NCBI GenBank assembly: GCA_022801925.1 | Contig: JAAWTG010000008.1 | Coordinates: 2,619-66,618, forward strand | DNA length: 64,000 bases | Reading direction: 5' to 3' | Source of the DNA: Clostridia bacterium | GTDB lineage: Bacteria; Bacillota; Clostridia; RUG12999 | Part shown: positions 7,039-62,679 of the stretch, piece after piece | Layout of the letters: each line of letters begins with the position of its first letter | Numbering within the stretch: position 1 is the first letter of the stretch | Translations under genes and position numbers: made by a program | Notes under the pieces: model-generated | Seen by the model: only the letters and a program-made list of their open reading frames with translations | What the model was told of the DNA's origin: nothing | Databases searched by the model: none

Positions 7039-7041
7039 AAT

Positions 7042-7419
7042 TTAATTGATATATTTTGTGGATAGATAGACAATTCTCAAATCTTTTGAGATGTTATATG
7101 CGCATATAAAACTCCGTATCTTTCGCCAAATATCACTCATCATTTCATTTATTTCTATTACCTTTTCGCCGGATATGTATCTGTTACCGTTGGCAATCCT
7201 TGCAATTTGGTTTATGTTAGTTCCGATGTGATTTAACTCTTTGTAAATTTTCAGCAATTCCTCTGTAGGAAGCGGTTTTATTTCACAGGCTTGAATTAAT
7301 TTTGTCAGCACCGTAGTTTTTGTAAGTCCTGATTTTTCTGCAAGTATGTCGAGTTTGTGTTTGTCTTTATCGGACAGATAAAACTGTACTTTGTTGTTTT
7401 TATATCTCATATAAGTCAT
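7042..7419 (-). CDS. Plasmid mobilization relaxosome accessory protein MobC
   Basis: 125-aa protein with the MobC-family pattern (ribbon-helix-helix-like N-terminus, ...LNHIGTNINQIARIANGN...). Confidence 0.65.
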   Translation of the reverse strand: MTYMRYKNNKVQFYLSDKDKHKLDILAEKSGLTKTTVLTKLIQACEIKPLPTEELLKIYKELNHIGTNINQIARIANGNRYISGEKVIEINEMMSDIWRKIRSFICAYNISKDLRIVYLSTKYIN

Positions 7420-7594
7420 TCCTTTCTATGGGGGATTGGGGGCTTTGCCACCAACAAGTGGGCATTTGGGAGTACAAATGCTATGCTTGCAAGTACAAAA
7501 ACGGTTATTTATATATTTTAAAAGTTAAACTGCTTCAAAGTATAATTCTGGTTGACAGTTTAACTAATACATCATTTTATATGTTTTCGGCATT

Positions 7595-7730
7595 GATACA
7601 GTATTAAATTTCCGATATATCAATACTGCTTTTTATAACAGACATATAACATTAAAAATTTCAATACTGAAATTTAAAATAATCAATATTATTGCAATAT
7701 CGAAAATATATATTTTCAATACCGCATAAT
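7595..7730. promoter_or_regulatory. AT-rich region with repeated CAATACTG motifs in direct and inverted orientation (candidate oriT, or operator for the excisionase promoter)
   Basis: CAGTATT at 7599, CAATACTG at 7621 and 7663 (the latter inside the palindrome AAATTTCA-atac-TGAAATTT), CAATACCG at 7717. Confidence 0.35.
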
Positions 7731-7769
7731 TACCATATCATAAAAGTTCTCATAATTATCCTCCATTCC

Positions 7770-7985
7770 TTACTCAATTCTGCGGACGTCATCACGGTTT
7801 AACAGATTTCTTCCCTGATTGATACTTAGAAATCTTTCAAGTGCGTCAGTGCGAATGATATTCTTTCTCCCGACTTTAAGCACGGGCAACTTATTCCACT
7901 CGACTAACTTACGCATAGTATTTCTACCAATACCTGTGTATTCTGCCGCTTCTTCAATAGTCATACCTATTTTGACGTTCATCAT
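7770..7985 (-). CDS. Excisionase-family DNA-binding protein (Tn916 Xis-like)
   Basis: 71-aa HTH protein, ...MTIEEAAEYTGIGRNTMRKLV...RKNIIRTDALERFL, the typical Xis pattern. Sits upstream of the integrase. Confidence 0.7.
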   Translation of the reverse strand: MMNVKIGMTIEEAAEYTGIGRNTMRKLVEWNKLPVLKVGRKNIIRTDALERFLSINQGRNLLNRDDVRRIE

Positions 7986-8052
7986 AGCTGTTCCTCCTTT
8001 CTTATGTATTCAAAATACAACTGTTGTGTTATGATTATACGCTTATTTTTAT

Positions 8053-8117
8053 AAGTTGTCAACATTAATTGCAACTTATTATTAAATATTTTTAATCTTG
8101 GGTTGCATTTGACAACC
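8053..8117. promoter_or_regulatory. Operator-like inverted repeats (GTTGTCAA...TGCAAC) upstream of the element's XRE regulator
   Basis: AAGTTGtcaacattaattgCAACTT at 8053-8077, with a related copy GGTTGCATTTGACAACC at 8101-8117. An extended -10 (TGgTATAAT) follows near 8166-8174. Confidence 0.35.
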
Positions 8118-8204
8118 TTGTGTGTTATAATAACACTGCGCACACAACGCGTGCTGGTAGTTATGGTATAATGATTATGAAATAAACTTACAGGAGGTAA
8201 AAGA

Positions 8205-8849
8205 ATGGAGGAAAAAACAAATGTCTACACTGCAAAACAAATAGGCGCACGAATAAAAGAACGCCGTAAAGAATTAGGAATTTCAATGGAAACACTCGGC
8301 AATGCGCTTGGAGTAAATAAATCCACTATTCAAAGATATGAAGCAAGAGGTATTGATTCTAAAAAGAATTATATCCTTATATCTATTGCAGACGCGCTTG
8401 ATACAACTGTTGAATGGCTGACAGGATTAAGTGATGACCGCAATTACAATATTTCTGATATATGTAAGTCAGAACTTGATAAACATATCACATCTTATAT
8501 AGCTGAACTAATTGAAAGTGTACCCGCTCAAGAACATCAGCAAATGCTGACAAGTATACTCGGCTGTTTTATAGATATGTTCAGTATACTGAGTAATCAT
8601 TTCGGAATAGCTATGAAGTCAATAGCTGATATAGAGAATGATATGGAATTAAAATCATCTTTGACTAAATACGCACTTAATTCAGGCGATATTTCCGAAA
8701 AGGTATATCAGCAGGAAATGGAACAGCCTATTGAGGACTTTAAGCAAATGGCGGATTGTATGCTTCATATATTTGATAACGATGGAAAAAGCCATATAGC
8801 CCAAGTTTATGAAATCAGAAATACGGCAAGACAGAATTTCAAAAAATAA
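8205..8849 (+). CDS. XRE-family HTH transcriptional regulator with a C-terminal domain of unknown function
   Basis: N-terminal HTH_3 (IGARIKERRKELGISMETLGNALGVNKSTIQRYE). Strong RBS. Confidence 0.6.
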   Translation: MEEKTNVYTAKQIGARIKERRKELGISMETLGNALGVNKSTIQRYEARGIDSKKNYILISIADALDTTVEWLTGLSDDRNYNISDICKSELDKHITSYIAELIESVPAQEHQQMLTSILGCFIDMFSILSNHFGIAMKSIADIENDMELKSSLTKYALNSGDISEKVYQQEMEQPIEDFKQMADCMLHIFDNDGKSHIAQVYEIRNTARQNFKK

Positions 8850-8939
8850 CATCGTGGCTATTGCAAAAAGATAAATATTATGTTAATCTAAGTACACAAC
8901 ATATGTTACAGTACCGATTGCCACGAGAAAGGAGTTAAA

Positions 8940-10220
8940 ATGGCAAAAGGTTCAGTAAGAAAGAAAGGCAAAAAGTGGTATTACAGATTTTATGTTGAGG
9001 ACAAAAGCGGAAACCTTGTTCAAAAGGAATTTGCAGGCACAGAAAGCAAGAGTGAAACACAGGCTATGCTTCGTAAGGCAATGGAGGATTATGAAAGTAA
9101 AAAATTCATTGCCGAGTCAAAGAATGTAACGCTCGGTGATTTGCTTGATATGTGGATTGATGAGGAAGTTAAACCCGGCAATTTGAGCAATGGAACTGTT
9201 ATGGCATATGAGGGAACGATAAGACGTATTAAACAGCACCCTATCGGGAAACGCAAGCTGAAAAGTATTACATCAGACCATCTTCAATCATATATGGACT
9301 TGTTGAGTTTTGGCGATAAAAACAACAAAGCTTTAAGCAAGGGATATATGCGATTATTTTCAGCAGTATTACAAGGCTCATTCAGGTTTGCGGTATTTCC
9401 CAAAAGATTGATTACATTCAATCCAATGCAGTATGTCATACGGCGTGAAAAGAAAGAGGAAGTCAACATCTTTGAAAATGATAATAATGGAAGTGAAACA
9501 CAAACAATTACTCACAATCAATACTTAAAGCTGACAGAATATCTCAAAGATAAAAACAATCCTGCATTACTTCCCTTACAGATAGCATATTATACGGGTT
9601 TGCGAATTGGTGAAGTATGCGGCTTAACTTGGCAGGATATTAACCTTGATGAACAATATCTGACAGTAAGGCGAAGTATGCGATATAACGGTGAACGACA
9701 TAAGACAGAAATCGGAGTTACAAAGCGTAACAAAATCCGTACCGTTGACATTTGCGATACTCTGACTGTTATTCTTCGTAAAGCAAAGACGGAGCAAATG
9801 AAAAACCGATTGAAGTACGGAAACTTGTATAGCTTAAACTATTACAAAACCGTCAAGGAAAAAGACCGTACATATTATGAAGTTTATGCTTTGCCTATGA
9901 CAGAAGAAAAGCCGGAGGATTACAAAGAAATTGGCTTTGTATGTACTCACGCAGATGGTGTGTTTGAATCAACAAGTGCAGTTGGTCAAATGTGCAGGAC
10001 AGCAAGAAAAAAGGTAAAAGGGATAGAAAACTTCCATTTTCATTTGCTCAGGCACACATTCACGAGCAACCTGTTGTCAAACGGTGCAGCACCAAAAGAT
10101 GTGCAGGAACTTCTCGGACACGCTGACGTAAGTACCACTATGAACATTTACGCACACTCAACAAGAGAATCAAAACACAATTCCACAAAACTGCTTGATA
10201 AAGTAGTCGGTGGAAACTAA
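8940..10220 (+). CDS. Tyrosine-type site-specific integrase
   Basis: C-terminal catalytic box [40 protein letters not shown]...H.xR...Y. Confidence 0.9.
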
Positions 10221-10875: not shown

Positions 10876-10910
10876 TTTGATAAATAGAAATTTGTCAGGG
10901 AGACATATGA

Positions 10911-10943
10911 AGCACTTAGAAAAAATCTAAGTGCTGTTTTTTT
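10911..10943 (+). terminator. Rho-independent terminator (AGCACTTAG-aaaaaat-CTAAGTGCT-GTTTTTTT)
   Basis: Perfect 9-bp stem followed by a 7-U tract. Confidence 0.75.
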
Positions 10944-11015
10944 GCTCTATTCACAGCATTAAGGCAGAAAAGCGGAGATGTTTTCTGCGGAAACAGGGAG
11001 AGTTATCAAAAATGC

Positions 11016-11044
11016 TTGACAAGTATACTTGTCAATGCTATAAT
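11016..11044 (+). promoter_or_regulatory. Consensus sigma-70 promoter TTGACA-N17-TATAAT overlapped by a 20-bp perfect palindrome (TTGACAAGTATACTTGTCAA)
   Basis: Exact hexamers and spacer. The palindrome at 11016-11035 is a likely operator for the downstream XRE regulator. Confidence 0.6.
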
Positions 11045-11091
11045 ACAAAATGTAAAGAAAACTTGTCAAATGTGAATGGGGGGGGTATTTT

Positions 11092-11408
11092 ATGAACAGA
11101 GAAGAAGTTTTAGAAAAAAGCCGTATCGAATGTAACGATGAAGGGTTTTATGATGCGGAAAACCAAGGGAGAAAATTGGGACTTTGGGCTTTTTGTATTA
11201 TGAAAGTCGCAATCATGCATTTAATTGGTGTACGGGGTAACCTAACCATATTCCGCTTGCAATGTTTTGGGCATTTTCTGCCATAGAGTCGTATCCCAAA
11301 TATAAATTTACAGAGAAGAAATCTTTGCTTTGGACTACAATTATAGGAAGCATAGCGGCGGTATGTTCGTTTGCTTGTCATATTATTATGGTGATAGCGG
11401 CAATGTAG
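11092..11408 (+). pseudogene. DUF6442-like small membrane protein gene, apparently split by a frameshift
   Basis: The N-terminal frame (MNREEVLEKSRIECND...) ends at 11286. The remaining hydrophobic C-terminus (...MFWAFSAIESYPKYKFTEKKSLLWTTIIGSIAAVCSFACHIIMVIAAM) continues in another frame to 11408, directly upstream of the partner XRE gene. Confidence 0.4.
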
Positions 11409-11417
11409 AGGTGATTT

Positions 11418-11627
11418 ATGGATAATAAACTAATATTAAGAAACAGATTAAAACAGATAAGGCGTGAAAAGGGGCTTTCGCAATTTCAACTTGCGGAAAT
11501 GGTGGGGGTTTCGAGAAACACAATCTGTTCAATAGAAATAGGGCATTTCAATCCAACGGCAAAATTAGCACTGATTCTTTGTATTGCGTTGGATAAAAAA
11601 TTTGAAGATTTATTCTATTTTGAATAA
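11418..11627 (+). CDS. XRE-family helix-turn-helix transcriptional regulator (69 aa)
   Basis: LKQIRREKGLSQFQLAEMVGVSRNTICSIE. Usual partner of DUF6442-type membrane proteins. Confidence 0.8.
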   Translation: MDNKLILRNRLKQIRREKGLSQFQLAEMVGVSRNTICSIEIGHFNPTAKLALILCIALDKKFEDLFYFE

Positions 11628-11765
11628 GTATATGCTCCCTTGGGGCTAGAGGGGTATAGCAATTTAGGCTTGCTGAAATAGAATATGGAAAGGGCAAAAA
11701 AATTTCTGATAGAATAAATATATATCGGCGGGCAAGATATATAGAAAGCGGAGAAATAGAAGTTT

Positions 11766-14532: not shown

Positions 14533-14991
14533 ATGGCGGGTATTTTTGACGAAAAGAATATGATACAGGTGTTAGAAAACTGTATTCCGGAAGGAGAAGC
14601 CCTTTTGGCGGGCATACATGGTATTACACTTCAGATAAACAAGAAAAAAACATCAAAGTTTGGCGTATATGTTGGTATCACAGCACAATATTTACTGGTT
14701 GTGGAATGTGAAGAACGAGAATACTTAAACAAATTTTATCGCGTTCCGGACATAAGGAAAACCGTAGCAGAAGAGGTTGGAACCTGTTTCCTGTTGGCAG
14801 ATATTAGGAGTTGTCTCATCAAAAACGCTATTATGGGGGCGGTCAACTGTTCCATCACATTGAAAGACGGCAGCTTTCTTAAACTTTTGTTCCCGAAACG
14901 CGGAGGAATAGGCGGCGGTATGCCGCACCACACAGAATATCGTGAAAAGATTATAACGCGTTTGGAGCGGTTGAGTTGCAGTTACCAATAG
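14533..14991 (+). CDS. Hypothetical protein
   Basis: 152-aa ORF with RBS AAGAGG. No recognisable motif. Confidence 0.35.
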   Translation: MAGIFDEKNMIQVLENCIPEGEALLAGIHGITLQINKKKTSKFGVYVGITAQYLLVVECEEREYLNKFYRVPDIRKTVAEEVGTCFLLADIRSCLIKNAIMGAVNCSITLKDGSFLKLLFPKRGGIGGGMPHHTEYREKIITRLERLSCSYQ

Positions 14992-15315
14992 TTGATGATA
15001 AATCCTATAGATTGATTTGAAATTAAAAAATATCAGAATGAGAGAAAATAAGAGATTATATTGCAAATAAACATTGGAATCGTTATATCGGTGACGAACG
15101 ATAGTTTGAGGTGGTACGCATCTTTGGAGCAAATGTAAAGTGGAAATCACGGATAACAGAACAAGCAATATTACTTGTTCGCTGCTTCAGAAGCGTGCAC
15201 CGTTTGTTGCCGGTGGTGAGTTCGCGGTCATACATATGACTTATATGTCAAGCGGTAAGATAAAACGATAGATGATGGGGCATGAAACAGTTGCGGGTAA
15301 AAGAGGAGGAAAGAA

Positions 15316-15967
15316 TATGACAGATGTGAAAAAGTTTAATGACCAGAGTATTGGAGAGGAAATTGCAAATGCCATTTCGCATGGAATCGGCGCACTGCTT
15401 GCTATTGCCGGCACTGTTGTTATGATAGTCGCGGCGTGTATCTTTAGCGACGCGATGGGGATTGTATGCAGCGCGCTTTATGGCTTTAGTTTGATTGTTC
15501 TCTATCTGATGTCAACGCTATATCATGCAATTACCAACCAAAAAGCAAAAAGGGTGTTTCAAGTGTTTGACCATTGTTCCATTTTTATTTTGATTTTGGG
15601 CAGCTATATTCCGATTTGTCTTTCCCTATTGAGCGGATGGACGGGCTGGACATTGTTTGGTATCAATGCGGGCTGTACGGCGCTTGGTATTGTTTTTAAT
15701 GCCATTAACGTGCATAAATGGCATAAGGCGTCATTGGTATTATATGTATTGATGGGGTGGTCTGTTGTGGTTGCGGCAATCCCTATGCTGCATATGGTGC
15801 CGGTTCAGGGACTGATATTATTGGTTGCGGGCGGCATTAGCTATTCTGTGGGAATTTTGTTCTATCGGGCGAAAAAGCCGCGGTATATGCATTCTATTTG
15901 GCATATGTTTGTATTGGGCGGCAGTGTACTACACTATTTCTTTATTTTGTTTTATATCATTCTATAA
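15316..15967 (+). CDS. Hemolysin-III / PAQR-family membrane protein
   Basis: 7 TM segments; LYHAITNQKAKRVFQVFDHCSIFILI...SYIP and HxxxH-type motifs. ATG 15316 follows AGAGGAGG. Confidence 0.85.
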
Positions 15968-16162
15968 AGAAGTGCATGGATTGAAATAGATTTTGTGCCA
16001 GCATATGTGTGAGCACTATTTGTTGTCAAATCAGAAGCAATATATATGAAGTGATACACGCAGCGAGTGAAAACAAAAATCCGATAGATTGTTTTTCTGA
16101 AGGCTGTCTGTAAGTAGGCAAACAAAAGTCGATTTTCTTATGCCTAAAGGAGGGGAACCCAA

Positions 16163-16201
16163 ATGAAACGATGCATTGCTGTGGCTCTATGCAAAGTCTG
16201 A
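16163..16201 (+). CDS. Candidate 12-aa leader peptide (MKRCIAVALCKV) of an attenuator upstream of the MFS gene
   Basis: Strong RBS AAAGGAGGGG 8 nt upstream. The peptide overlaps one arm of mutually exclusive hairpins (see findings). Confidence 0.3.
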   Translation: MKRCIAVALCKV

Positions 16202-16295
16202 CAGGGCGTTTTGCATAGAGCGGATAAAACAATCATTCGCCCGAAAAGACTTTGCTTTTCTTTTGATAAAAATATAAAAAAGGAGCAAAGTCCAT

Positions 16296-17612
16296 ATGAA
16301 ACAATTAAAAACAACCATTCATGAATTAAAGTATTTTTTACTGCTATGGTCTACCCAGTCGTTTTCCACCTTGGGCAGCGCAATGACCAATTTTGCATTG
16401 GTTGTCTGGGCATATCAGGAAAAAGGGTCAGCGCTGATGGCGGCGTTGTTGTCGGTCTGTTCCTATGCGCCCTATGTGCTGATGAGCATTTTTGCCGGTG
16501 CGCTGAGTGACAGATGGAATAAGAAATATGTCATGCTGGTCAGCGATACATGCGCCGCGGTATGTACGGTTGCAGTGCTGATATTGTTACAGCTTGGCAA
16601 GCTGGAAATTTGGCATTTGTATATACTGAATGCATTGAACGGACTCATGAATACCTTTCAGCAACCTGCGTCCGATGTGGCAGTCAGTTTGCTTACGCCA
16701 CAGCAGCACTATCAAAAAGTCAGCGGTATGCGGACGTTTAGCAACTCACTCAACAGTATTTTAGCGCCTGTTTTTGCAACTGCACTGTTTTCTTTTGCAG
16801 GAATCCAAACGGTGATTGCTTTTGATTTAGCAACATTTGCAGTCGCGGCGGCAATGTTGATGTTTGGCGTTAAAATGCCGCAAATGCAAAAGATAGAGGA
16901 ACACAAAGAGAGGTTGCTGCAAGCTGCCCGAAATGGGCTGCACTATTTAAAAACGCACCGGGGGATTTTGGATTTAATCCTGTTTTTGGCAGCGATTAAT
17001 TTCACAGCGTCTGTCTATTCCGCCGCGCTTCCGGCGCTGCTGCTTTCCGTGCAAGGCGGCGGGAAATATGCCTATGGTATGGTGAACATGGTTTCGGGAA
17101 TTGCCATGCTGGCGGGGAGCGTGCTTGTCACAATGCTTCCGGCGCCTAAAAGTCGCGTGCGGGTGATATGCAACACATTGCTGCTGTCAATGGGGACGGA
17201 AAACTTTTTTCTGGCATTTGGCAAAAGTGTTCCGGCGTGGTGTATCGGTGCAATTTTGGGCTGGATTGCCATTCCACTCATGAACGCAAACATGGATGTA
17301 CTGCTTAGAAGCAGTATCCCGATTACCATGCAAGGACGCGTTTATGCAGCAAGAAATACACTGCAATTTTTTACAATACCGCTGGGATATGCCATAGGCG
17401 GTTTGGCAGTGGATTATTTTTTTGAACCGTTTATGGCAGCACAGCTGCCAACCTCTGTTTTTTCTCACCTGTTTGGGATAGGCAAGGGAAGCGGTGCGGC
17501 GCTGTTGTTCTTCCTTTTGGGGGTGCTGGGCAGTATGACATGCTTGGTGTTCCGAAAAGACAGAAATGTTTGGCGGCTGGAGAGACAGAGCAAAAGCAAT
17601 AGCGGAATATAA
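16296..17612 (+). CDS. MFS transporter, DHA3 (Mef/EntS-like) family
   Basis: 12-14 TM segments. N-terminal region resembles macrolide/enterobactin efflux MFS proteins. Confidence 0.8.
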   Translation: MKQLKTTIHELKYFLLLWSTQSFSTLGSAMTNFALVVWAYQEKGSALMAALLSVCSYAPYVLMSIFAGALSDRWNKKYVMLVSDTCAAVCTVAVLILLQLGKLEIWHLYILNALNGLMNTFQQPASDVAVSLLTPQQHYQKVSGMRTFSNSLNSILAPVFATALFSFAGIQTVIAFDLATFAVAAAMLMFGVKMPQMQKIEEHKERLLQAARNGLHYLKTHRGILDLILFLAAINFTASVYSAALPALLLSVQGGGKYAYGMVNMVSGIAMLAGSVLVTMLPAPKSRVRVICNTLLLSMGTENFFLAFGKSVPAWCIGAILGWIAIPLMNANMDVLLRSSIPITMQGRVYAARNTLQFFTIPLGYAIGGLAVDYFFEPFMAAQLPTSVFSHLFGIGKGSGAALLFFLLGVLGSMTCLVFRKDRNVWRLERQSKSNSGI

Positions 17613-26593: not shown

Positions 26594-26752
26594 GATTCAC
26601 AATACCTCATTTCATTGATTTTTCGTCCTGGCGCACGCGGGAGGGTTCCGAGCCGTTTTAGGGCGGGGAACAATTCGGCGGCGCTTAATAATACCTTGCA
26701 TATATTATAACATGGGAAATGGTGGAATGCAACCGTTCAGAGGAACTTTTTC

Positions 26753-28438: not shown

Positions 28439-28522
28439 CTGTCATACCTCCCTTGGTTTGATAATATACGCATCGCCGGTTTCGAGCGAAGCGAAGAAAC
28501 GATTCGGCGGTGCTTTCTCATT

Positions 28523-28640
28523 CATGCAATCTTCGGACACGTGCCGAAGATTGCATACCTTTCGCTGTTCGGAGTGTCAAGGAACGCGACGCGACGCGCG
28601 AGTGCAGAACAGCGAAAGGGGGAATCCCCAAGGGGGGATG
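28523..28640. repeat. GC-rich structured intergenic element, copy 1 (13-bp-stem hairpin with ACACGTG loop, plus nested stems)
   Basis: ATGCAATCTTCGG-ACACGTG-CCGAAGATTGCAT at 28523-28555; CCTTTCGCTGTT (28557-28568) pairs with AACAGCGAAAGG (28607-28618); GGGGGAATCCCC follows. Confidence 0.5.
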
Positions 28641-28742
28641 AATCGACGGCATAAGCCGGAGAGAATCCCTTCTTGGAAATATATTATACCATGATTTTAA
28701 TAGAAATACCAGCCATTTTTTATCAAAGGGTTGCAAAAATAC

Positions 28743-28771
28743 CAGAATTGCGCTACACTATATATCATAAG
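28743..28771 (+). promoter_or_regulatory. Promoter TTGCAA-N17-TACACT upstream of the MATE gene
   Basis: Good match to the -35 and -10 hexamers with a 17-nt spacer. Confidence 0.4.
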
Positions 28772-28797
28772 CGAATATAAAGAAAGAAGGCGACGAT

Positions 28798-30215: not shown

Positions 30216-30794
30216 ATGGAAAAAGTGGTGTTGGCGTCAAACAATGCAGGAAAACTGCGGGAGTTCCGAGAAATTTTAGAAGGGCTGTTTGAAATTGTTT
30301 CCCTGCGGGAATTGGGACTGGAAGCAGACCCGGAGGAAACGGGCAGCAGTTTTGCAGAAAATGCGCGGATAAAGGCGGAATATTCCTGCCGTCTCAGCGG
30401 TTTACCCGCGCTTGCAGATGATTCGGGATTGGAAGTGGACGCATTAGGCGGCGCGCCCGGTATCTACAGCGCGCGTTATGCCCCGGGAACGGATGCGGAC
30501 CGAGTGGTAAAATTATTGCAAGACATGGAAAATGTGGAGAAAAGAACAGCGCGATTTGTTTCGGTGGTTGCACTGGTATATCCGGACGGACGGCAGGTGA
30601 CGGCGCGCGGAACCTGCGAAGGCGTTATCACGCGGCAGCCGCAGGGCGCGGGCGGATTCGGCTATGACCCGATATTTTTGCCTGATGGCTATGACCAAAC
30701 CTTCGGACTGCTCAGCGCAGAGACAAAAAACAGCATTTCCCACCGCGGCAGGGCAGTGCGCGCACTGCGCGACAAATTAAATTTATCCAGATAA
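30216..30794 (+). CDS. rdgB: Non-canonical purine NTP pyrophosphatase (RdgB/HAM1)
   Basis: VLASNNAGKLREF...SVVALV...FGYDPIF. ATG 30216 follows GGAGGAAG. Confidence 0.9.
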   Translation: MEKVVLASNNAGKLREFREILEGLFEIVSLRELGLEADPEETGSSFAENARIKAEYSCRLSGLPALADDSGLEVDALGGAPGIYSARYAPGTDADRVVKLLQDMENVEKRTARFVSVVALVYPDGRQVTARGTCEGVITRQPQGAGGFGYDPIFLPDGYDQTFGLLSAETKNSISHRGRAVRALRDKLNLSR

Positions 30795-30822
30795 ATCGTT
30801 TCGGACGAGGCAATGAACTGTT

Positions 30823-31038
30823 ACGAGGGGGACTTCAAAGACTGTAAAGCAGTCTCATGTCCCCCTCGCACCCTCCGGGCACACGATAAGCTCCCCAAGT
30901 TCGGGACGCAAGGAAAGCATAAATCCCGCATTTTATGCAGGATTTCCGTCCCGCAAGGTGCAAAAAGTCAGGCGCACGCGTGCCCCAGAGGGGATGTCCT
31001 GACTTTTTGCATATTTTATAGAAGGGGTAACCCCCTTC
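30823..31038. repeat. GC-rich structured intergenic element, copy 3
   Basis: ACGAGGGGGAC...GTCCCCCTCG with an inner hairpin AGACTG/CAGTCT. 13-bp-stem hairpin GCAAAAAGTCAGG/CCTGACTTTTTGC whose loop holds the palindrome GCACGCGTGC. Confidence 0.5.
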
Positions 31039-31082
31039 CTAACCCCAGTTTTAGCGTATTGACTAGTTTTGTCTACAGTCTG

Positions 31083-31113
31083 AGCGTATCTCATCAGAGA
31101 TACGCTGTTTTTA
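31083..31113 (+). terminator. Rho-independent terminator
   Basis: Perfect 10-bp stem, 4-nt loop, then GTTTTTA. Confidence 0.8.
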
Positions 31114-31131
31114 TCATAACAATGGAATAAA

Positions 31132-35307: not shown

Positions 35308-35403
35308 CTAGGATTCCTCCTTTGGTGACAAATTAATCATCATAGCCGCTTATGGGCTATGATGTGCTTTACTAAGCGAACGGAATCAGACTACTTTCTA
35401 GTC

Positions 35404-35557
35404 ATGGAATATCCGGACACGTGCCGGATATTCCATACCTCTCAGCCGTGAGCGTTTCGATAGGAACGCTGCGAGAGCGGACGCGGCTGCATGGGGGTGT
35501 CCACGAGGGGGACGGCTTGACAGAATATTTTACATTCTGGAAGGAGTCCCCCTCGTG
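35404..35557. repeat. GC-rich structured intergenic element, copy 2
   Basis: ATGGAATATCCGG-ACACGTG-CCGGATATTCCAT (35404-35436). CACGAGGGGGAC (35502-35513) pairs with GTCCCCCTCGTG (35546-35557), with the inner hairpin CAGAAT/ATTCTG. Confidence 0.5.
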
Positions 35558-35877
35558 ATGTAAATAGTATATCATAAAAAAAACTTTTTTTCAATTCCAC
35601 AGAATAAATTGCCTGATTGTACATTGCGGAAAAATAGGTAAAAAGTGCCGATTTATCGAGGTTTTGCGGAATCGGAGAATAAAATTAGTAAATCATTTGA
35701 TTAAAAAAAGTAAATTTTAAAAGGACTAAAATAATGAATGAAACGAGGGCGTATTCAAAATTTGTCAGCCGCAAATAAAATTCGTAAATTGAAATTCAAC
35801 ATGGCACCTTGTATAATAAAAACAGAACACGGACAGAGGGAAAATGTCCGGAAAAATCAGGAATGGAGGAGATTGGC

Positions 35878-39522: not shown

Positions 39523-42500
39523 ATGAAACGACATGCAAAGCGTTTTTGTGGAATACTTTTGCTCACGGCAATGCTGCTGGCAATGATTCCGGCAGGATTT
39601 GCCGCCGCAGCGGGGGTTGCCATGCCAACGGCTGATGTTGCGCCGGGACTCTATAGGGAGACCAAACAGGTTTCGCTGTCGGCAGCGGCAGGTGCAACGA
39701 TTTATTATTCCACAGATAATAAAATGCCGGACGAGACCTGCACAGAATATACAGGTTCCATCACAGTGAGTGAAACCACAAATATTTGTGCCATTGCGGT
39801 GGCAGACGGCGTGAAAAGCGACCCTGTCACGTTTACATACATCATCAAAGATGCAGAAGAACCGATTTTTCAATTTGTAGCAATGAGCGATATTCATATC
39901 GGCGACAGGACAAAAGACGCACCGCGGGTAAAGAAAGCGTTTGATGTGATTCAGTCCATTTTCCCGGAGCCGGATGCGATTGTTCATGTGGGCGACCAAA
40001 TCAACGACAACCACGTTGCCCATCCGGAACAGCCGGATCGCAGTGCAGACCATCAAATTGTGGTTGATATGCTGCAAAAAGAATTGCAAGACCGCAGCTT
40101 GACAGACAAAACCGACGTCAGCATGGTAATGGGAAACCATGACTCGACGGTAAGTAATATGCAGAAATACTATCCGGAAGAGTGGTATCCAACCTCCGGA
40201 CCGGGCTACTATCATAAAGTGATTGACGGCTATGATTTTCTGTTTTTGAACACAGAAAGCGCAAATCAGACGCAAGCAAATTGGTTAAGTGAAAAATTGC
40301 TGGAAATCACGAAAAATAAAACAGAGATGAACAAACCCATTTTTGTGGCGGGACACAGACCACTTGCAGGAACGGTGTTGGACAGCCAATATGCAGTGAA
40401 TGCTCCGGCAATCACGAATGTGTTAGCGGAATATCCGCAGGTAGTGGCGTTTTCGGGACATTCGCATATCAACATGAACGACGAAAAATCCATTCATCAA
40501 AAAAACTATACTTCTTTGAATACAGGTTCCATGAGTTATATTGAAATTGACCGTGGTAACAATTTTCAGATGCACACTAATGCAGGACAAGTGGCATCCT
40601 TTGAAATTCCTGTCACGCAGTGCTACTTTGTGGAAGTCTTTAGTGACCGTGTGGAATTTGACCGCGTGGCAGTGAACGCGGACTGGGGCGATGCCAGACC
40701 GCATTTTATCCCATCTGAACCCTTCAACAATACTGGTGTATCCATTGGAGAACGCTGGACGGTAGATATGACAGGCGACATTAAAAGCAAATTCCAATAT
40801 ACAGCAGAAAAACGAAAAGGCAGCGCGCCGACCTTTGCAGCGGATGCAAAAGTAACAGCAAAAATAGAAGGCGGCAAAGCGCTTGTAACTTTCTCTCAGG
40901 CGGAGGACGTGCAGAAGCTTCGCTATTATGAAGTAGCTATGCGCGATGCAGCAGGAAACGACGTCAAATCCATGAAGGTACTGCCGGAGCACTATTTCTC
41001 ACCGGTACCGCGTACATTAACCTATGAATTTACGGATATTCCGCAGTTTGGCGGCAGTTATACCTTTGGCGTCCGCGGCGTGGATACCTTTGGCAACCGC
41101 TCGGAAGCGATTGTCACGGAAGAAGCGGTGACTGTGCCGAAGTTGCCAGGGATTTTACCGACTTATCTGGTAAACGAGACATTCACCGAGGAACCGACAG
41201 ACGCGGCGACACAAGTAATGCCATTTGTAGACGCATGGAGCGGCGGACAGGCAACAATAAACTACAATAATGGAATGTGCAATCTGGTCAATGGTGGAAA
41301 TACAAACTTTGGTTTGGGAATGCCGCTTATGCCGGGAGATGGAACAACCGCTACGCCGACCGGACCTTTGATGGTAGAATGGGAATGGAAAGACGCTACA
41401 GGTGCAGGGGAAGAAATCCAAGCCTATTTCCGTAATGCGGCGGGTCAAAACTCATTTGTTGTCCGTGCTTATTCCGGTAGCTATAACTGCCGATTCATTA
41501 ATGCAAGCAATGGTTCCGGCAGTAACTGGGGTAGTTCTTCAGCGGCAGGATCCAATGCTATGACCAAGGTGCGGGTGCTGCTGAATAACACAGGAAGTGC
41601 AGCTTATGTAGATGGCGTGTGGCTGAATGGGACACGTATTGTCAGTGAACGTCAGACATTTCTCAGAGATGTTGGCGCTGGATTTTCAAAAATTATTTTC
41701 AGTCACAAGACAAATGGCTCAACGGGCGATACGGTATTTAATATAGATAATCTCAAGGTATGGGTGCCGGCGGCTTCCCAAGCGGCAAAATTAGCGGCGG
41801 AGGACGGTGCGGCGATTACTTTTGACGATATCAAAGGAACCAACGAAGCGGCGAATAATATCACGTCAGACTTGGCGTTGGCGGCGAAAACAGAAACAAC
41901 AAACGGTTTGATTGTCACAGGCTGGAAATCCAGCAATCCAGCAGTCATTGCGGCAGACGGTACTGTAACGCGTCCAGGACTTGGAGAACCGGACACAGAA
42001 GTGACTCTGACACCGATTCTGGGCGTACTGGATTTTGAAAACGAAACAGACGGCAACTATGCTACGGCAGAAGGAACGCCCATCACAGTGACGGTCAAAA
42101 CCACCGACACCACCGGCGGCATTCGTCCGGAGGATGTGAATGGCGTTGGATATTATGTCAACGAAACCTATGACGAGAAACCGACTGACCCACAGACGCA
42201 TTCCATTCCAAGCATTGGCACATGGAGCGGCGGCACGGCAGAATGGACTGTGGAAGATGGAAAACTGGCGATGGTACCGACGTCAACCGGTTATAATTTC
42301 AATATACAAATCCCCTTCATGCCGGGAGAAATGAAAGAAAATATCGTGCCGAAGGGCAAGGTATATATTGATTTTAAATGGCAACATGGTGCAAATGAAA
42401 CACAGACCGACCTTTATGTGCAGGGGTATGCAAGCAATCTTGTGAAGTTGATAGCAAAAAGCGGAAAACTAGAGGTAGCGTATTATGACGCAAGTAATAA

Positions 42501-45500
42501 ACTGCAAACCTATGCAACTTCTGCGAGCGGACTCAATTTTAATCAAATGAATCAGATTAAACTTTTGATGGATGTAAAAGCCGATGGAGCATCCACCTTG
42601 GAAGGCTTTTGGTTAAATGGAACGGAAGTCAAAACGGGATCCGTAACTCTTTATAAGAAAACGGGAACGGAAGATAAAGATATAGAAAGAGGACCGGCCG
42701 GCTTGGTTTCCTCTCGATGGGCAACAACAGGTACAAAACCCTACAAAATGTTAGAGTTTGATTATATGAAAACATGGCAGCCGGTAGAAGAACAGCTTGC
42801 GGCGAAAGCGGCGAAAGCGACGGTTACATTTGACAGCATTAAAGGCGCCAATACAGCGGCAGACAATGTTATGGGGAATCTGAAACTAGGGGGGGCGTCA
42901 TATGAAATTATAAATGGACTTTCTCTGGTCGGATGGAAATCCGGCAACGAAGCTGTTATTAAAGCAGATGGCACTGTAGTACGTCCTGCCTATGGCAGCG
43001 GCGATGTACAGGTGGCGCTGACGCCGGTATTTGCAATGCGCAACAGCGAAAACGAAGATGGCGTTCCCGAACTTGTCAAAGCAGACGGTACGCCGATTAC
43101 CGTAACAGTGAAAGAAGCAGGAAAACCAACGGACTTTAATGTGACATATTTAGTAAATGAAGATTTTGATACTCTGCCAACAGAAGCAGACGCAGCAACC
43201 CGTCCCATTCCGTCTGAATCGGCATGGAGCGGCGCGTCCGCTACGGTTGATGTGGCGGACAGTGCGGCTCGGTTGAAACTGGACGGCGGCATTGCAAAGA
43301 ACACACAAATGAATGTTCCTGTCATGCCGGGAGCAGCAGCAAGTACCATGCCGCGCGGAAAGAATATGATTGAATTTGAATGGAAACATCATGCAAATGC
43401 AACGCAAATCATGGTCTATTTGCAAGGGGCAAACGGACATGTGCTGAGACTGGAAAAGAGCGGGACGAGTACAATTATTAAAAAAGGAACCAACGGCAGT
43501 GCTTTTTCCGATGTAAAAACGTTAAGTAATCAGGTCTTTACAACTGATACAAAAGTCCGTCTGCAAATAGACACTTCGACAGAAGGTAAGACCTATTTGG
43601 AACAATTGTGGATTGGTGGAACACCAAAATTAGACAGTCGCGTGGAATTGTTTGATGCGGGTGATGGATTGAAGCAATTGATGTTTGCGCCCGGAAATAC
43701 GACTACCGGCGTAGGCGATATCGTGTGTAGCGTCAACTACATTAAAGCATGGCAGAGCGCACCGGCGCAGCTTGCAGAATATGTAGCACAAAATCCTGTG
43801 AACGTTACATTTGATAACATTAAAGGCGAGAACACAGCAGCGAACAATGTGACGAGCAATCTGCAAAAAGCAGATTTAGGTAACGGCTTGAAAGTGGTTG
43901 GCTGGAAAACCAGCAACGCGGCAGTCGTTGCGGCGGATGGCACTGTGACACGCCCTGCAAAGGGAAGCGGAGATGTTCAGGTGACTTTAACGCCGATGAT
44001 TGGAACAGAGGATATCACAGGCGAAGGAACAGACGGTTATATTTCTGTAGACGGTACGCCGATTACGGTTACGGTGAAAGAAGCTACGGGAGAAACAACA
44101 CCGACACCGACGGAAACAGCGACACCAACGCCCACGCCAACATCGGATACGCCCACGCCCACGCCGGTACCAGGCGAATCAAAATTGGCATATTTTGTGA
44201 ATGAACCTTTTGATACCCTGCCGACGGCGGCAGATGCGGCAACCAGACCCGTTCCGGTTGTAAGTGATTGGGGCGGAAAAGATTCCATAGTTCGGGTAAC
44301 CGATGGCGCGGTGCAGTTGGTTCGCGGCAGCAAAGCGGCGAACACCTGTCAATTGGACGTGCCGCTTATGACAGGTACCGGCACGGCAAGTATGCCGCGC
44401 GGCGAAAACATGATTGAATTTGAGTGGAACCGCAACAGTAAATCAACGCAAATGGCGGTTTATATCAAGGGCAGCGCAGGACACGCGATGAAACTGAATT
44501 GCACGAATAATTCCATGGCAATTCAAAGCTCCCAAACCGGTAAACCAAATGCCGGTGAATTTACCACCTTGGCAACGGTAGACAATCTCAATTTGGGCAG
44601 CGGCTGGACAAAAGTCCGGTTGAAAATTAATTCAACAGGAACAAGTACCTATCTGGAACAAGTTTGGGTGAACGGCGAAGCGAAACTGTCGTCAAAAGCA
44701 GTGCTGTTTGACGTTGGGCAAGGATTGCAGCAGATGATGTTCTCGCCAGGTAACGGTTCTGTAGGTGCAGGAGAAGTGATTGTCAGCCTGAACTATTTAA
44801 AAACATGGCAAAGCGCAGCGTCTCAAATTGCGGAACTGTCCCAAGGCGCTGTCACCTTTAACGATATCAAAGGTACAAATACGGCGGCAGACGCTGTAAC
44901 AGCAAATCTGGATTTCAGTAAAACGGAAATCGGCGATTTCAGAGTACAGGGCTGGAAATCCTCCAACGAAGACATTATTGCGGCAGACGGCAGCGTGACG
45001 CGTCCGCTGATTACGCAGAACGACGCGCAGGTGGTGCTGACGCCGATACTGGGCATGGCGGACACGACAAACGAAGGCGACGGCACTTGGGTCTATGGCG
45101 ACGGCGCACCCTTGACAGTCACCGTGAAGAAAATGGGCGCGGCGGACGCGGTTGCACGGGTGAAAGCAGAGCTATCCTTTGACGACATCAAAGGTATCAA
45201 CACGGCGGCGGACAGTGTGACGGATAATCTGGACTTTATTCGGGAACTGAACGGCGTAAACATTCAGTGGAGTGTGCAGTCCATGACGCCTTCCACAACA
45301 ACGGCAAAAGTGGACGGCGCAACCGGCATGGTGGTTCGTCCGCAGATGAATGAAAGCGATGTGACCGTTGTATTGCGTGCGGCGCTTACCTGTGAGGGTG
45401 CGTCCGACACCAAAGACATCACGGTAACACTCAAGAAACTGGACGTATCCGCAGAGGAATATCTGCGGCAGTTGGCGGACAGTCTGACCTTTGCGGAAAT

Positions 45501-47127
45501 TGCAGGGGATAACAAAGCAGAGAATCGAATCACAGCGAACCTGCACCTCATTCCTTCTTTCAAGGGAGCGCAGGTGACATGGCAGTCCAGTCAGCCGCAG
45601 ACGGTTGCGGCTGACGGCAGTGTGACACGTCCGGACTATCCGCAGCCATCTGCTGAAGTGCAGCTTACAGCAACGCTGCAAATGGAAGGCGCACAGCCGG
45701 TCACAAAAGTGTTCCGTGTTGTGGTTCTGTCTACCGATTCGGACAACTTAGCATTAGAGAAAACTGTGAAAGTCAACGTAGCAGCGGACGGAGACACCAA
45801 AGCGGCGAACCTGACAGACGGCGACAGAGATACAACCTTCCGCACCAAAGCAGGTGCGAAAGCCTATACGGTGACAATTAATTTGGGCAGTGAAACACCG
45901 TTTAGCAGCTTGGACGTCTATGAAGTCGCAAACGGCGACGGTGTCTATGCGATTGAAGCCTATACAGTTGACATTTCAAATGACGGTAAAACATGGAAAA
46001 CCGTTGCGACAGGCGGCACCATTGGACTGGGCAGCACCATTGCTTTTGATCCGGTAATCGCACAGTATGTACGGTTAAATGTGACCAAAAAGAAATCGGG
46101 CGTGGCGTCGGAGCTGGCAGAAATTGCAGTACGTTTGCAGCCAACAGAGGCGCAGCGTGTGAAAGCGGATATTGAAAATCTGATGCTAGACCTGCCGGAT
46201 ACCATTACGGCAAACAGTATTACTTTGCCGGCAAAAGGTGCGTTTGGTTCGGATATTACATGGACATTTACGCCGGAGGGAATTATCGCTCAGACCGGAA
46301 CGCCGGACGGCAATGGCAATATGACGTATGCAGTGACCCATCCGCAAAACGGACAACGGGTAACGCTCGTTGCAACAGCAAAAAGCGGCGCTGCGGCAGC
46401 GAAAAAGAACTTTAATCGTTCTGTTAGCGGTACCGCTACGAATAACGGAGGCGGCGCAGGTAACAGTGGCGGGGGCAGCGGAAGTGCTTCTGGTGGCAGT
46501 GGCAGCGGCGGCGGAAAAATGCCAAATGTGAATCTTGGAGACCTCAGCGGTGTGGGAACGCCGAGTGGCGCGAACAAACCGTCACAAGAGGGATTCCGCG
46601 ATATGGAACAGGATGCATGGGCAATTCCATATGTCATGAAGCTGTATACGCGCGGCGTGGTACAAGGCGATGAAAACGGAAACTTCCGGCCGGCACAGAG
46701 TGTTAACCGTGAAGAATTTGTAAAAATGCTGGTGCTGGCGCTGGACGTTCCGGAAAGCGAAGCAGACATCGCATTTGCCGATATGGAACAAGGCGCTTGG
46801 TACAGAGATTATATTCAGGCAGCAGTGGCAGCAGGTATTGTCAAAGGCGTATCGGAGGAGCGGTTTGGCGTAGGCGAAACCATCACGCGTGAAGATATGG
46901 CAACGATGATTTACCGTGCGGTGACTTACCTGAAACAAAATATTGGAAATAGTGAACATGCAGCTACCATCACGGATGCGCAGGACATCAGCAGCTATGC
47001 GCAGGAAGCAGTAAGCGCACTGGTGCGCGGTGGCGTTATCAGCGGCAACGAGGCAGGGGAATTCCTGCCGAAAAATCAGTCAACCAGAGCGGAAGCTGCA
47101 AAAATGCTGGCAATGTTGATGCAATAA
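39523..47127 (+). CDS. Giant (2534 aa) SLH-anchored cell-surface protein. Contains a calcineurin-like metallophosphoesterase domain, four tandem roughly 330-aa lectin-like + Ig-like modules, a discoidin-like domain and three C-terminal SLH repeats.
   Basis: Signal peptide. A CHB_HEX_C-like domain (GATIYYSTDNKMPDETCTEYTGSITV). Metallophosphatase motifs (AMSDIHIGD, HVGDQIND, GNHDS, GHSHIN). Repeats start at about 41141, 42142, 43141 and 44187. PT linker. SLH x3 begin at DMEQDAWAIPYV. Confidence 0.8.
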   Translation: MKRHAKRFCGILLLTAMLLAMIPAGFAAAAGVAMPTADVAPGLYRETKQVSLSAAAGATIYYSTDNKMPDETCTEYTGSITVSETTNICAIAVADGVKSDPVTFTYIIKDAEEPIFQFVAMSDIHIGDRTKDAPRVKKAFDVIQSIFPEPDAIVHVGDQINDNHVAHPEQPDRSADHQIVVDMLQKELQDRSLTDKTDVSMVMGNHDSTVSNMQKYYPEEWYPTSGPGYYHKVIDGYDFLFLNTESANQTQANWLSEKLLEITKNKTEMNKPIFVAGHRPLAGTVLDSQYAVNAPAITNVLAEYPQVVAFSGHSHINMNDEKSIHQKNYTSLNTGSMSYIEIDRGNNFQMHTNAGQVASFEIPVTQCYFVEVFSDRVEFDRVAVNADWGDARPHFIPSEPFNNTGVSIGERWTVDMTGDIKSKFQYTAEKRKGSAPTFAADAKVTAKIEGGKALVTFSQAEDVQKLRYYEVAMRDAAGNDVKSMKVLPEHYFSPVPRTLTYEFTDIPQFGGSYTFGVRGVDTFGNRSEAIVTEEAVTVPKLPGILPTYLVNETFTEEPTDAATQVMPFVDAWSGGQATINYNNGMCNLVNGGNTNFGLGMPLMPGDGTTATPTGPLMVEWEWKDATGAGEEIQAYFRNAAGQNSFVVRAYSGSYNCRFINASNGSGSNWGSSSAAGSNAMTKVRVLLNNTGSAAYVDGVWLNGTRIVSERQTFLRDVGAGFSKIIFSHKTNGSTGDTVFNIDNLKVWVPAASQAAKLAAEDGAAITFDDIKGTNEAANNITSDLALAAKTETTNGLIVTGWKSSNPAVIAADGTVTRPGLGEPDTEVTLTPILGVLDFENETDGNYATAEGTPITVTVKTTDTTGGIRPEDVNGVGYYVNETYDEKPTDPQTHSIPSIGTWSGGTAEWTVEDGKLAMVPTSTGYNFNIQIPFMPGEMKENIVPKGKVYIDFKWQHGANETQTDLYVQGYASNLVKLIAKSGKLEVAYYDASNKLQTYATSASGLNFNQMNQIKLLMDVKADGASTLEGFWLNGTEVKTGSVTLYKKTGTEDKDIERGPAGLVSSRWATTGTKPYKMLEFDYMKTWQPVEEQLAAKAAKATVTFDSIKGANTAADNVMGNLKLGGASYEIINGLSLVGWKSGNEAVIKADGTVVRPAYGSGDVQVALTPVFAMRNSENEDGVPELVKADGTPITVTVKEAGKPTDFNVTYLVNEDFDTLPTEADAATRPIPSESAWSGASATVDVADSAARLKLDGGIAKNTQMNVPVMPGAAASTMPRGKNMIEFEWKHHANATQIMVYLQGANGHVLRLEKSGTSTIIKKGTNGSAFSDVKTLSNQVFTTDTKVRLQIDTSTEGKTYLEQLWIGGTPKLDSRVELFDAGDGLKQLMFAPGNTTTGVGDIVCSVNYIKAWQSAPAQLAEYVAQNPVNVTFDNIKGENTAANNVTSNLQKADLGNGLKVVGWKTSNAAVVAADGTVTRPAKGSGDVQVTLTPMIGTEDITGEGTDGYISVDGTPITVTVKEATGETTPTPTETATPTPTPTSDTPTPTPVPGESKLAYFVNEPFDTLPTAADAATRPVPVVSDWGGKDSIVRVTDGAVQLVRGSKAANTCQLDVPLMTGTGTASMPRGENMIEFEWNRNSKSTQMAVYIKGSAGHAMKLNCTNNSMAIQSSQTGKPNAGEFTTLATVDNLNLGSGWTKVRLKINSTGTSTYLEQVWVNGEAKLSSKAVLFDVGQGLQQMMFSPGNGSVGAGEVIVSLNYLKTWQSAASQIAELSQGAVTFNDIKGTNTAADAVTANLDFSKTEIGDFRVQGWKSSNEDIIAADGSVTRPLITQNDAQVVLTPILGMADTTNEGDGTWVYGDGAPLTVTVKKMGAADAVARVKAELSFDDIKGINTAADSVTDNLDFIRELNGVNIQWSVQSMTPSTTTAKVDGATGMVVRPQMNESDVTVVLRAALTCEGASDTKDITVTLKKLDVSAEEYLRQLADSLTFAEIAGDNKAENRITANLHLIPSFKGAQVTWQSSQPQTVAADGSVTRPDYPQPSAEVQLTATLQMEGAQPVTKVFRVVVLSTDSDNLALEKTVKVNVAADGDTKAANLTDGDRDTTFRTKAGAKAYTVTINLGSETPFSSLDVYEVANGDGVYAIEAYTVDISNDGKTWKTVATGGTIGLGSTIAFDPVIAQYVRLNVTKKKSGVASELAEIAVRLQPTEAQRVKADIENLMLDLPDTITANSITLPAKGAFGSDITWTFTPEGIIAQTGTPDGNGNMTYAVTHPQNGQRVTLVATAKSGAAAAKKNFNRSVSGTATNNGGGAGNSGGGSGSASGGSGSGGGKMPNVNLGDLSGVGTPSGANKPSQEGFRDMEQDAWAIPYVMKLYTRGVVQGDENGNFRPAQSVNREEFVKMLVLALDVPESEADIAFADMEQGAWYRDYIQAAVAAGIVKGVSEERFGVGETITREDMATMIYRAVTYLKQNIGNSEHAATITDAQDISSYAQEAVSALVRGGVISGNEAGEFLPKNQSTRAEAAKMLAMLMQ

Positions 47128-62529: not shown

Positions 62530-62626
62530 TATATCATAAACGCGAAGCGTTTTGATATAATTTCGTGCATCTCCGCCGGTTGCCACGTTTTTATGCGTGG
62601 CGAGGCAGAGGCACTTTTCAAATTCA

Positions 62627-62653
62627 TATAATAGTCGCTATGTGACTATTATA
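62627..62653. promoter_or_regulatory. Perfect palindrome TATAATAGTC-N7-GACTATTATA upstream of rubrerythrin (candidate PerR operator overlapping the -10)
   Basis: 10-bp arms, exact. Confidence 0.45.
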
Positions 62654-62679
62654 TCATGCATTAGAGGAGGTACACAAAC

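Follow-up and report, generated by a model that had tools for sequence, protein, structure and literature searches.

What occupies the gap downstream of rdgB in the Clostridia bacterium of lineage RUG12999? The gap lies at 30795–31131 of the window, meaning the whole 64,000-nt stretch of contig JAAWTG010000008.1 (assembly GCA_022801925.1) that was analysed. A sequence-only reading had proposed that about 300 nt between rdgB and an intrinsic terminator form an independent small RNA (sRNA) read on the plus strand. The comparison with relatives showed that most of the gap, a hairpin-rich piece of approximately 263 nt, is a recent insertion. The explanation favoured below, and held to be moderately probable, is that this insert is a copy of a lineage-specific, interspersed, non-coding structured repeat similar in kind to BOX and bcr1 and transcribed only passively.

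Filled and empty sites downstream of rdgB

The rdgB gene (Ham1 family in Pfam) ends with the stop codon TAA at 30792–30794, and its neighbour, a minus-strand gene for a GH123-family glycoside hydrolase, ends at 31132. The two genes are convergent and the 337-nt spacer therefore sits between convergent genes. Loci of relatives, given here as L numbers, were gathered by exact look-ups of the window rdgB protein and of homologues at 97–77% identity, and those compared share the gene order MATE, rdgB, convergent GH123. The full region was present in L081 and L084, which have an identical rdgB (99.7% identical), and in L234 (GCA_949742335.1; rdgB 97%), where identity was 98.5% over the 337-nt spacer and 98.1% over the insert. 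It was absent from L236 (GCA_949739095.1; rdgB 97%, spacer 83 nt), L241 (95%, 72 nt), L238 (91%, 62 nt), L093/L240 (90%, 62 nt) and L089/L239 (88%, 120 nt with a different hairpin). The empty sites of the 97–90% relatives consist of a short spacer and a bidirectional terminator homologous to 31083–31113. Comparing the rdgB downstream regions of relatives was a check that the sequence-only reading had itself set beforehand, and it found the insert lacking and the terminator alone kept at the syntenic site of the 97%, 95%, 91% and 90% relatives, a result that tells against a novel sRNA of roughly 300 nt.

The comparison of the filled site, …GGACGAGGCAATGAA (insert CTGTTACGAGG … CTACAGTCTG) AGCGTATCTC…, with the empty site of L241, TAA-AGAGTTTGGACGAAGCAATAAAAAAAT|AGCGTATCTC-tgat-GAGATACGCT-ATTTTTATC, places the insert at approximately 30820–31082. 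The spacer is thus made up of about 25 nt of old post-rdgB spacer, the insert and the old terminator. Besides the near-identical strains, only a single 97% relative shares the recent insertion at 30820–31082. Between the window and L234 the flanking genes are 96.0% to 99.8% identical, so that the spacer, at 98.5%, shows no sign of special constraint. Two of its five substitutions fall in stems and both weaken them. A comparison deeper than that between the window and L234 is impossible because the insert is so young.

The claim that the region is free of protein-coding sequence stood. There is no credible open reading frame; the 105-amino-acid frame at 30813–31130 has no usable ribosome-binding site and could not exist in those relatives in which the insert is missing. 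Neither this frame nor the overlapping 102-amino-acid frame on the minus strand had a Pfam match, and the translated frames of the element, run as a chimeric query against a collection of 5.8 billion proteins, gave no match.

Table 1. Positions in the window of the spacer, the insert with its parts, the terminator and the other two repeat copies. The strand given for the insert and its named hairpins is the probable orientation of the repeat.
Feature	Position	Strand	Description
Ancestral spacer (ATCGTTTCGGACGAGGCAATGAA..)	30795..30819	+	Aligns with the empty sites of L241 (AGAGTTTGGACGAAGCAATAAAAAAAT) and L236
Hairpin-rich insert, ~263 nt	30820..31082 (boundaries ±3 nt)	-	Absent from L236, L241, L238, L093/L240 and L089; present in L081, L084 and L234
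H3 hairpin	30824..30868	-	Stems CGAGGGGGAC/GTCCCCCTCG (outer) and AGACTG/CAGTCT (inner), with internal loops
H2' hairpin	30902..30953	-	Outer 7-bp stem CGGGACG/CGTCCCG, inner 11-bp stem, 12-nt one-sided 3' bulge
H1' hairpin	30960..31010	-	13-bp perfect stem GCAAAAAGTCAGG/CCTGACTTTTTGC; 25-nt loop containing GCACGCGTGC
Extra hairpin	31021..31038		GAAGGGG-taac-CCCCTTC; no counterpart in the other repeat copies
Small 5' hairpin	31061..31082	-	CAGACTGTAGAC..CTAGTC (minus strand); similar to CAGACTACTTTCTAGTC of copy B (35388-35404), which lies upstream of H1 there
Terminator of the convergent rdgB/GH123 pair, ancestral	31083..31113	+	AGCGTATCTC-atca-GAGATACGCT, then GTTTTTAT
Repeat copy A (H1-H2-H3)	28505..28690	+	tadA/MATE divergent intergenic region; R1 136 bits
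Repeat copy B (5' hairpin, H1, H2, H3)	35385..35565	+	Upstream of an AraC-family gene; R1 177 bits

The terminator is older than the insert

The terminator has a 10-bp stem, a 4-nt loop and the U-tract GTTTTTAT. A terminator scan called it on the plus strand only, as the sequence-only reading had done. The homologous hairpin in L241, L236, L238 and L093 lies between an A-tract and a T-tract and is bidirectional; at the empty site of L241 the junction GCAATAAAAAAAT|AGCGTATCTCtgatGAGATACGCTATTTTT is in effect A-tract, hairpin, T-tract. The window's terminator reads the plus strand only because the insert replaced most of the A-tract. Its one-way reading is a consequence of the insertion and no sign of a plus-strand gene, and the terminator itself is ancestral and belongs to the convergent gene pair rather than marking the end of a new gene. 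The hairpin at 31083–31106 is accordingly like the bidirectional intrinsic terminators of convergent genes in being homologous to the A-tract/hairpin/T-tract terminator of the relatives, and differs from them in that the A-tract has been replaced by the insert, leaving a U-tract in the plus direction only.

A small repeat can therefore turn a shared bidirectional terminator into a one-way terminator, and such a change could leave rdgB open to antisense read-through by transcripts of the convergent gene. With the A-tract lost, GH123 transcripts would probably read through into the insert on the minus strand. The H1' stem of the insert has A5 and T5 at its borders, so that it may be a further terminator, working in both directions.

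The arms of the terminator hairpin are identical in the window and L241, while the loop is atca in the window (31093–31096) and its reverse complement tgat in L241 (2319–2322). It is as though the loop had been inverted between the two arms.

The insert shares a hairpin with a family of structured repeats

The description of the region as heavily base-paired was borne out, and all of the hairpins, together with the terminator, were found where they had been placed (Table 1). The minimum free energy was -129.8 kcal/mol on the plus strand against -87 for dinucleotide shuffles (z = -8.1) and -139.8 kcal/mol on the minus strand against -95 (z = -8.2); none of 100 shuffles folded as well as the region. 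Among 20 intergenic regions of the window the spacer had the lowest free energy per nucleotide and the joint-highest GC content. The near-palindrome AAATCCCGCAT-ttt-ATGCAGGATTT at 30921–30945 is nested within the outer stem of H2'. The absence of tmRNA, RNase P, signal recognition particle and 6S RNAs was confirmed with Rfam 15, which also covers riboswitches and Clostridiales motifs and gave no family at gathering score in the whole 64-kb window; at a permissive E <= 10 the best matches reached 14–18 bits against thresholds of 49–100 and were noise only.

The modules are not confined to this locus: the first hairpin of the region is part of a repeat with copies at two further intergenic sites of the window. 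The ACGAGGGGGAC module recurs at 35503 and 35546, and there are five window matches with at most one mismatch where 0.36 were expected. The ACGAGGGGGAC hairpin is the 3' hairpin (H3) of a multi-hairpin repeat of ~170 nt, copies A and B in Table 1. The repeat begins with a small 5' hairpin. There follow H1, a perfect 13-bp stem with the loop ACACGUG, then H2, made of outer and inner stems with an 11–14-nt 3' bulge and enclosed by pairing of an ACCUCU strand with GGGGGU (ACCUYU/GGGGGU in general), and finally H3, a G5/C5 hairpin.

A covariance model, R1, was built from four copies and recovers all copies at 97–177 bits. Over the five distinct copies, pairing holds in 95.6% of cells and both sides have changed in 27 of the 54 pairs, values that 0 of 500 shuffles matched; slid controls paired at 43–49%. 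The alignment had been fitted to the model, and this favours the structure. The H1 stem differs between copy B (CATGGAATATCCGG), copy A (CATGCAATCTTCGG) and L241 (ATCCAAAGCGCGG), and in each case the partner arm matches while loop and flanks stay constant. A possible use of the H1 arms as guides was rejected: they have chance-level matches only to other window sequence. In the copy B orthologue of L240, three double substitutions in the H1 stem were seen to keep pairing.

Occupancy of the sites differs among L234, L236, L241, L087, L238, L240 and L239. The site of copy A is empty in L238, L093 and L089, holds a repeat unit in L241, and in L087 holds a copy 90% identical to the window's copy B and not to copy A. 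Copy B has orthologues in L240, a 90% relative (14910–15079), and in L238 (8329–8365), where the contig is cut inside the copy. In other relatives the A and B sites are empty or filled by different hairpin modules. Seven Logan short-read contigs end inside or directly beside family hairpins (the ends of L082, L083, L085, L086 and L238 and the starts of L088 and L241), which fits repeated sequence or hairpin-related loss of coverage in assembly.

The family is previously undescribed. Copies A and B had no Rfam match at E <= 10, plasmid and phage BLAST searches gave no match, and no family copy was found in 80 rdgB loci of other taxa. In a scan of genome contigs for rdgB, the relatives among the matches listed were at most 54% identical. 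Metagenome matches to the H3 pattern were unrelated GC-rich hairpins, mostly from soil; a BLAST search with the window elements recovered no copy of the family among them. Viral scans with three patterns gave nothing, or chance matches which the covariance model rejected.

How much of the insert belongs to the family

Sharing of the H3 module is certain. As well as the outer stem, the flanks recur in copy B at 35504–35556 when the region is read on the minus strand: GGGUG upstream, UUUACA in the loop, and GTCCCCCTCGTRA downstream, or as RNA GUCCCCCUCGUAA against GUCCCCCUCGUGA. The rest of the insert was compared manually. On the minus strand the order of parts is that of the repeat, namely 5' hairpin, H1', ACCUU, H2', AGGGUG and H3. 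The 5' hairpin is CAGACUGUAGAC..CUAGUC in the region and CAGACUACUUUCUAGUC in copy B. The H1' stem is of 13 bp, as is that of H1; its loop starts ACAU and contains CACGCGUG, and ACCUU then follows, the corresponding parts of the repeat being a loop ACAYGUG and ACCUYU. In the covariance-model alignment H2' has the topology of H2. Of the two extra hairpins of the region, the second sits in the H2–H3 linker.

R1 scored the minus strand of the region at 24.0 bits in the window and 27.8 bits in L234, aligning H1', ACCUU, H2' and the bulge, with an E-value of 2.3e-6 in a 501-nt search and of 4.5e-4 and 5.7e-5 in a 98-kb search. Palindrome self-hits score just as high, which leaves membership of the whole insert as an argument from architecture. 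On this argument the whole insert is likely to be a family member, and probably represents a single copy of the repeat, divergent and expanded, in minus orientation. It would then be the youngest insertion and yet the most divergent copy. It cannot derive from copy A or copy B, so further and diverse members of the family would have to exist elsewhere in the genome.

Strand and transcription

All A and B copies fold 6–15 kcal/mol better on the strand that carries H1 first. On that strand G.U cells exceed A.C cells by 20 to 5, or by 11 to 4 when counted by column (p = 0.12), the structure having been derived from the same strand. For the region itself, folding gave -94.6 on the minus strand against -84.7 on the plus strand in the window, while the strands tie in L234; the difference in the window rests on a single wobble. 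A strand call from this wobble (30927/30939) was rejected, as L234 has a perfect pair there and the wobble is one recent substitution.

A promoter scan found no plus-strand sigma-70-type promoter between 30795 and 31131, including 30795–30825 ahead of the first hairpin. Any plus-strand RNA would hence be the 3' untranslated region (UTR) of rdgB, and the insert would be transcribed passively in this way up to the terminator. On the minus strand, extended -10-like boxes without a convincing -35 can be read at 31121–31113 (TGTTATGAT) and 31020–31013 (TATAAAAT). The best-conserved promoters beside copies A and B enter from the H3 side, antisense to the better-folding strand. They have TGGTATAAT-type boxes, and copy B also has a conserved minus-strand TTGAAA-17-TATACT with TG. 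Because of these H3-side promoters, copies A and B appear, as read from the sequence, to lie in long 5' UTRs of tadA and of the AraC-family gene. The reverse complement of copy B falls within the ~270-nt 5' UTR of the latter.

What kind of element is it?

An independent plus-strand sRNA gene of ~300 nt would account for the strong structure, for a terminator that reads the plus strand only, and for the lack both of an open reading frame and of a known RNA family. It has become very unlikely. Such a gene would have no promoter of its own at 30795–30825, it would be missing from syntenic relatives at 97–90% rdgB identity, and its terminator would be older than itself and once bidirectional. Its first hairpin belongs to a repeat present elsewhere, and the order of its parts fits that repeat on the opposite, minus, strand. 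For this locus a false lead is thereby removed: the structure is an insertion and not a conserved sRNA tied to rdgB.

The covariation within the family raises a different objection to an inert repeat, since it is strong enough that it could instead mean a functional RNA. The region would then be a paralogue in a new family of structured sRNAs or cis-acting RNAs, with a functional architecture, the hypervariable H1 stem as a specificity element and minus-strand transcription from a nearby -10-like box. Half of the pairs are changed on both sides, unpaired motifs (the loop ACAYGUG, ACCUYU and GGAARRAG) are kept while stems vary, and the H1 stem of L241 is wholly different and still pairs. The better folding of the H1-first strand and its excess of G.U over A.C cells point the same way, as do the minus-strand boxes named above and a -10 box ~50 nt upstream of H1 in copy B. 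However, these boxes are not kept across relatives (the B site of L238 reads CATGAA), no terminator follows H3, and copies are gained and lost between close relatives. The G.U excess is not significant when counted by column and comes from a structure derived from that strand, the strongest and best-conserved promoters at copies A and B are antisense, from the H3 side, and perfect palindromes can keep their symmetry through processes at the DNA level. This explanation is judged rather unlikely. A broader form of it, that the region and its paralogues at 28505–28690 and 35385–35565 make up an undescribed functional family of multi-copy structured RNAs or of strand-specific single-stranded DNA elements, is thought improbable. 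In that form the ACAYGUG loop, the ACCUYU/GGGGGU helix, the bulged H2 and the G5/C5 H3 may be the scaffold that carries a hypervariable, always paired H1 stem; if true, the family would be functional, for example as the specificity-carrying RNA of a mobile or regulatory system, and not inert selfish DNA.

The manner of insertion could also suggest the remnant of a non-autonomous insertion sequence (IS) carrying a structured RNA or single-stranded DNA hairpins and mobilised in trans, either IS200/IS605 ends with an omega RNA or reRNA, or an IS110 bridge RNA. The IS200/IS605 and IS110 families are not known to have terminal inverted repeats or to make a target duplication, which agrees with what is seen here, the insertions lie beside or inside palindromes, and a relative, L239, has an IS110-family transposase. 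Against this, the non-coding ends of the L239 IS110 copy are unlike the family, on which ground an IS110 bridge-RNA remnant was rejected. TnpA, TnpB, IscB and IS110 genes were not found among the window reading frames scanned, Rfam gave no HEARO or other match, and the hairpin sequences differ between copies, whereas transposase-recognised hairpins are usually conserved. An IS remnant is highly improbable. A classical MITE, or miniature inverted-repeat transposable element, was rejected for want of terminal inverted repeats and a target duplication, though the insert does have the MITE-like trait of being small (263 nt), non-coding and polymorphic between filled and empty sites at 97% rdgB identity.

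For a passively transcribed structured repeat there speak the insertion polymorphism, the shared H3 module, the presence of the family at several sites (28505–28690, 30820–31082 and 35385–35565, three within 64 kb) and its conserved pairing. How it is transcribed, how it spreads and whether the whole insert rather than H3 alone belongs to the family are matters of interpretation. The family would probably spread as selfish DNA landing beside or inside palindromes. Both datable insertions are at palindromes, the terminator A-tract here and, at tadA/MATE, the middle of a promoter palindrome, which in L238 reads ATAATATACGC-gat-GCGTATATTAT. Its likely effects would be those of other structured interspersed repeats, namely altered termination and stable hairpins on neighbouring mRNAs.

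Several observations weigh against the structured-repeat explanation. Beyond H3, BLAST detected no similarity between the region and the other copies, and the R1 score of the region is no higher than the 22–26 bits of reverse-strand palindrome self-hits of true copies. No target-site duplication is present: comparison of GCAATGAA (insert) AGCGTATCTC with GCAATAAAAAAAT|AGCGTATCTC shows the loss of a few A residues. Nor were there terminal inverted repeats, as the best end-to-end score of 16 was matched or beaten by 135 of 500 shuffles, or a cognate transposase of a suitable family among the window reading frames scanned. Finally, the ~140 kb of lineage sequence gave only three sites, which lie no more than 7 kb apart; no further copy was found in the rest of the window, nor in other intergenic regions in ~80 kb from relatives.

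Comparison with known repeats

The closest parallel in kind is bcr1 of the Bacillus cereus group, which in the account consulted is a repeat of ~155 nt, uneven among close strains, with a predicted multi-hairpin RNA fold maintained by compensatory changes and co-transcribed with neighbouring genes, its copies being flanked by 5-bp direct repeats (PMC3184786). The present element is likewise an interspersed non-coding repeat of a Firmicute, unevenly distributed among strains and with its structure kept by compensatory changes. It differs in having no flanking direct repeats, no sequence similarity to bcr1 and a greater length (263 nt). The pneumococcal repeats BOX, RUP and SPRITE are described as lineage-restricted, modular, highly structured and parasitic, with likely effects on co-transcribed genes, SPRITE being terminator-like (PMC3049150). 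The restriction to a lineage, the small interspersed units, the extensive secondary structure and the modular build are shared with the present family. BOX is built as a boxA-boxB(n)-boxC array, and an IS630-type element mobilises RUP, which is a MITE; here the modules are unrelated in sequence, and no such organisation or partner insertion sequence was seen.

Correia units of Neisseria (CREE/NEMIS) are reported as small intergenic repeats with functional promoters that are co-transcribed (PMC3184786). The likeness lies in the alteration of local transcription, in this case through the changed directionality of the terminator and the -10-like boxes at the edges of the element. Clear terminal inverted repeats mark Correia elements, together with a TA duplication, and the element here has neither. 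Repetitive extragenic palindromic (REP) sequences and the bacterial interspersed mosaic elements (BIMEs) built of them are, as summarised in PMC3733652, extragenic palindromes often found between convergent genes near terminators, with a proposed effect on termination and mRNA stability; REPs are single palindromes of 20–40 bp with a GTAG or CGTC tag and high copy number. The present element is also palindromic and also lies between convergent genes near a terminator. Assignment to REP/BIME was nevertheless rejected, as the unit spans 170–260 nt, comprises several hairpins and has no tag of this sort common to copies A, B and the region. The family stands out for its unusually clean compensatory variation, with the H1 stem wholly replaced between close relatives, and yet, on the evidence so far, it is a further example of a well-known class.

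Other observations in the window and relatives

The tadA/MATE divergent region (28439–28797) is a hotspot where modules are gained and lost, its length varying from 161 to 402 nt among relatives (L234, L236, L087, L238, L093, L089 and L241 were compared). In its simplest state the spacer holds a palindrome with a -10 box on each strand, to which lineages add a module termed H0, the three-hairpin repeat or unrelated hairpins. H0 occurs at 28470–28513 in this spacer and at 62565–62614 upstream of a gene at 62680, as well as at L236 4368, L239 14925 and L240 4675. It is laid out as an extended -10 box (TGGTATAAT or TGATATAAT), TTYGT, GCATC(nn)CCGCCGG, a hairpin, GCRC and a T-run. The module resembles a promoter with a terminator-like hairpin directly behind it, as either a tiny transcription unit or an attenuator.

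Perfect palindromes with TATAAT in each arm, for example CATGATATAATAGTCAC-tttg-GTGACTATTATATCATG, were seen at many promoters of the lineage (window 62621–62657 and 26696–26719; L236 2508–2542 and 4420–4452; L239 8442–8476; L238 1840–1867). Their form suggests pairs of opposite-strand promoters, each pair built from one hairpin.

In L239, the 88% relative, IS110-family and IS3-family insertions are present at 6546–7757 and 15345–16765 in an otherwise syntenic region. The window itself has a mobile-element-like cluster at 7042–10220, comprising a MobC/NikA-like mobilisation protein, a helix-turn-helix regulator and a tyrosine integrase and bordered by long AT-rich non-coding gaps (7420–8204 and 10876–11765); it is 20 kb from the region and no link between the two was seen. 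A reading frame of 2534 amino acids at 39523–47127 contains about five internal tandem repeats of ~1 kb, 63–80% identical at the DNA level, and lies in a glycan utilisation neighbourhood with ABC permeases, an alpha-L-fucosidase and GH88/GH123 genes.

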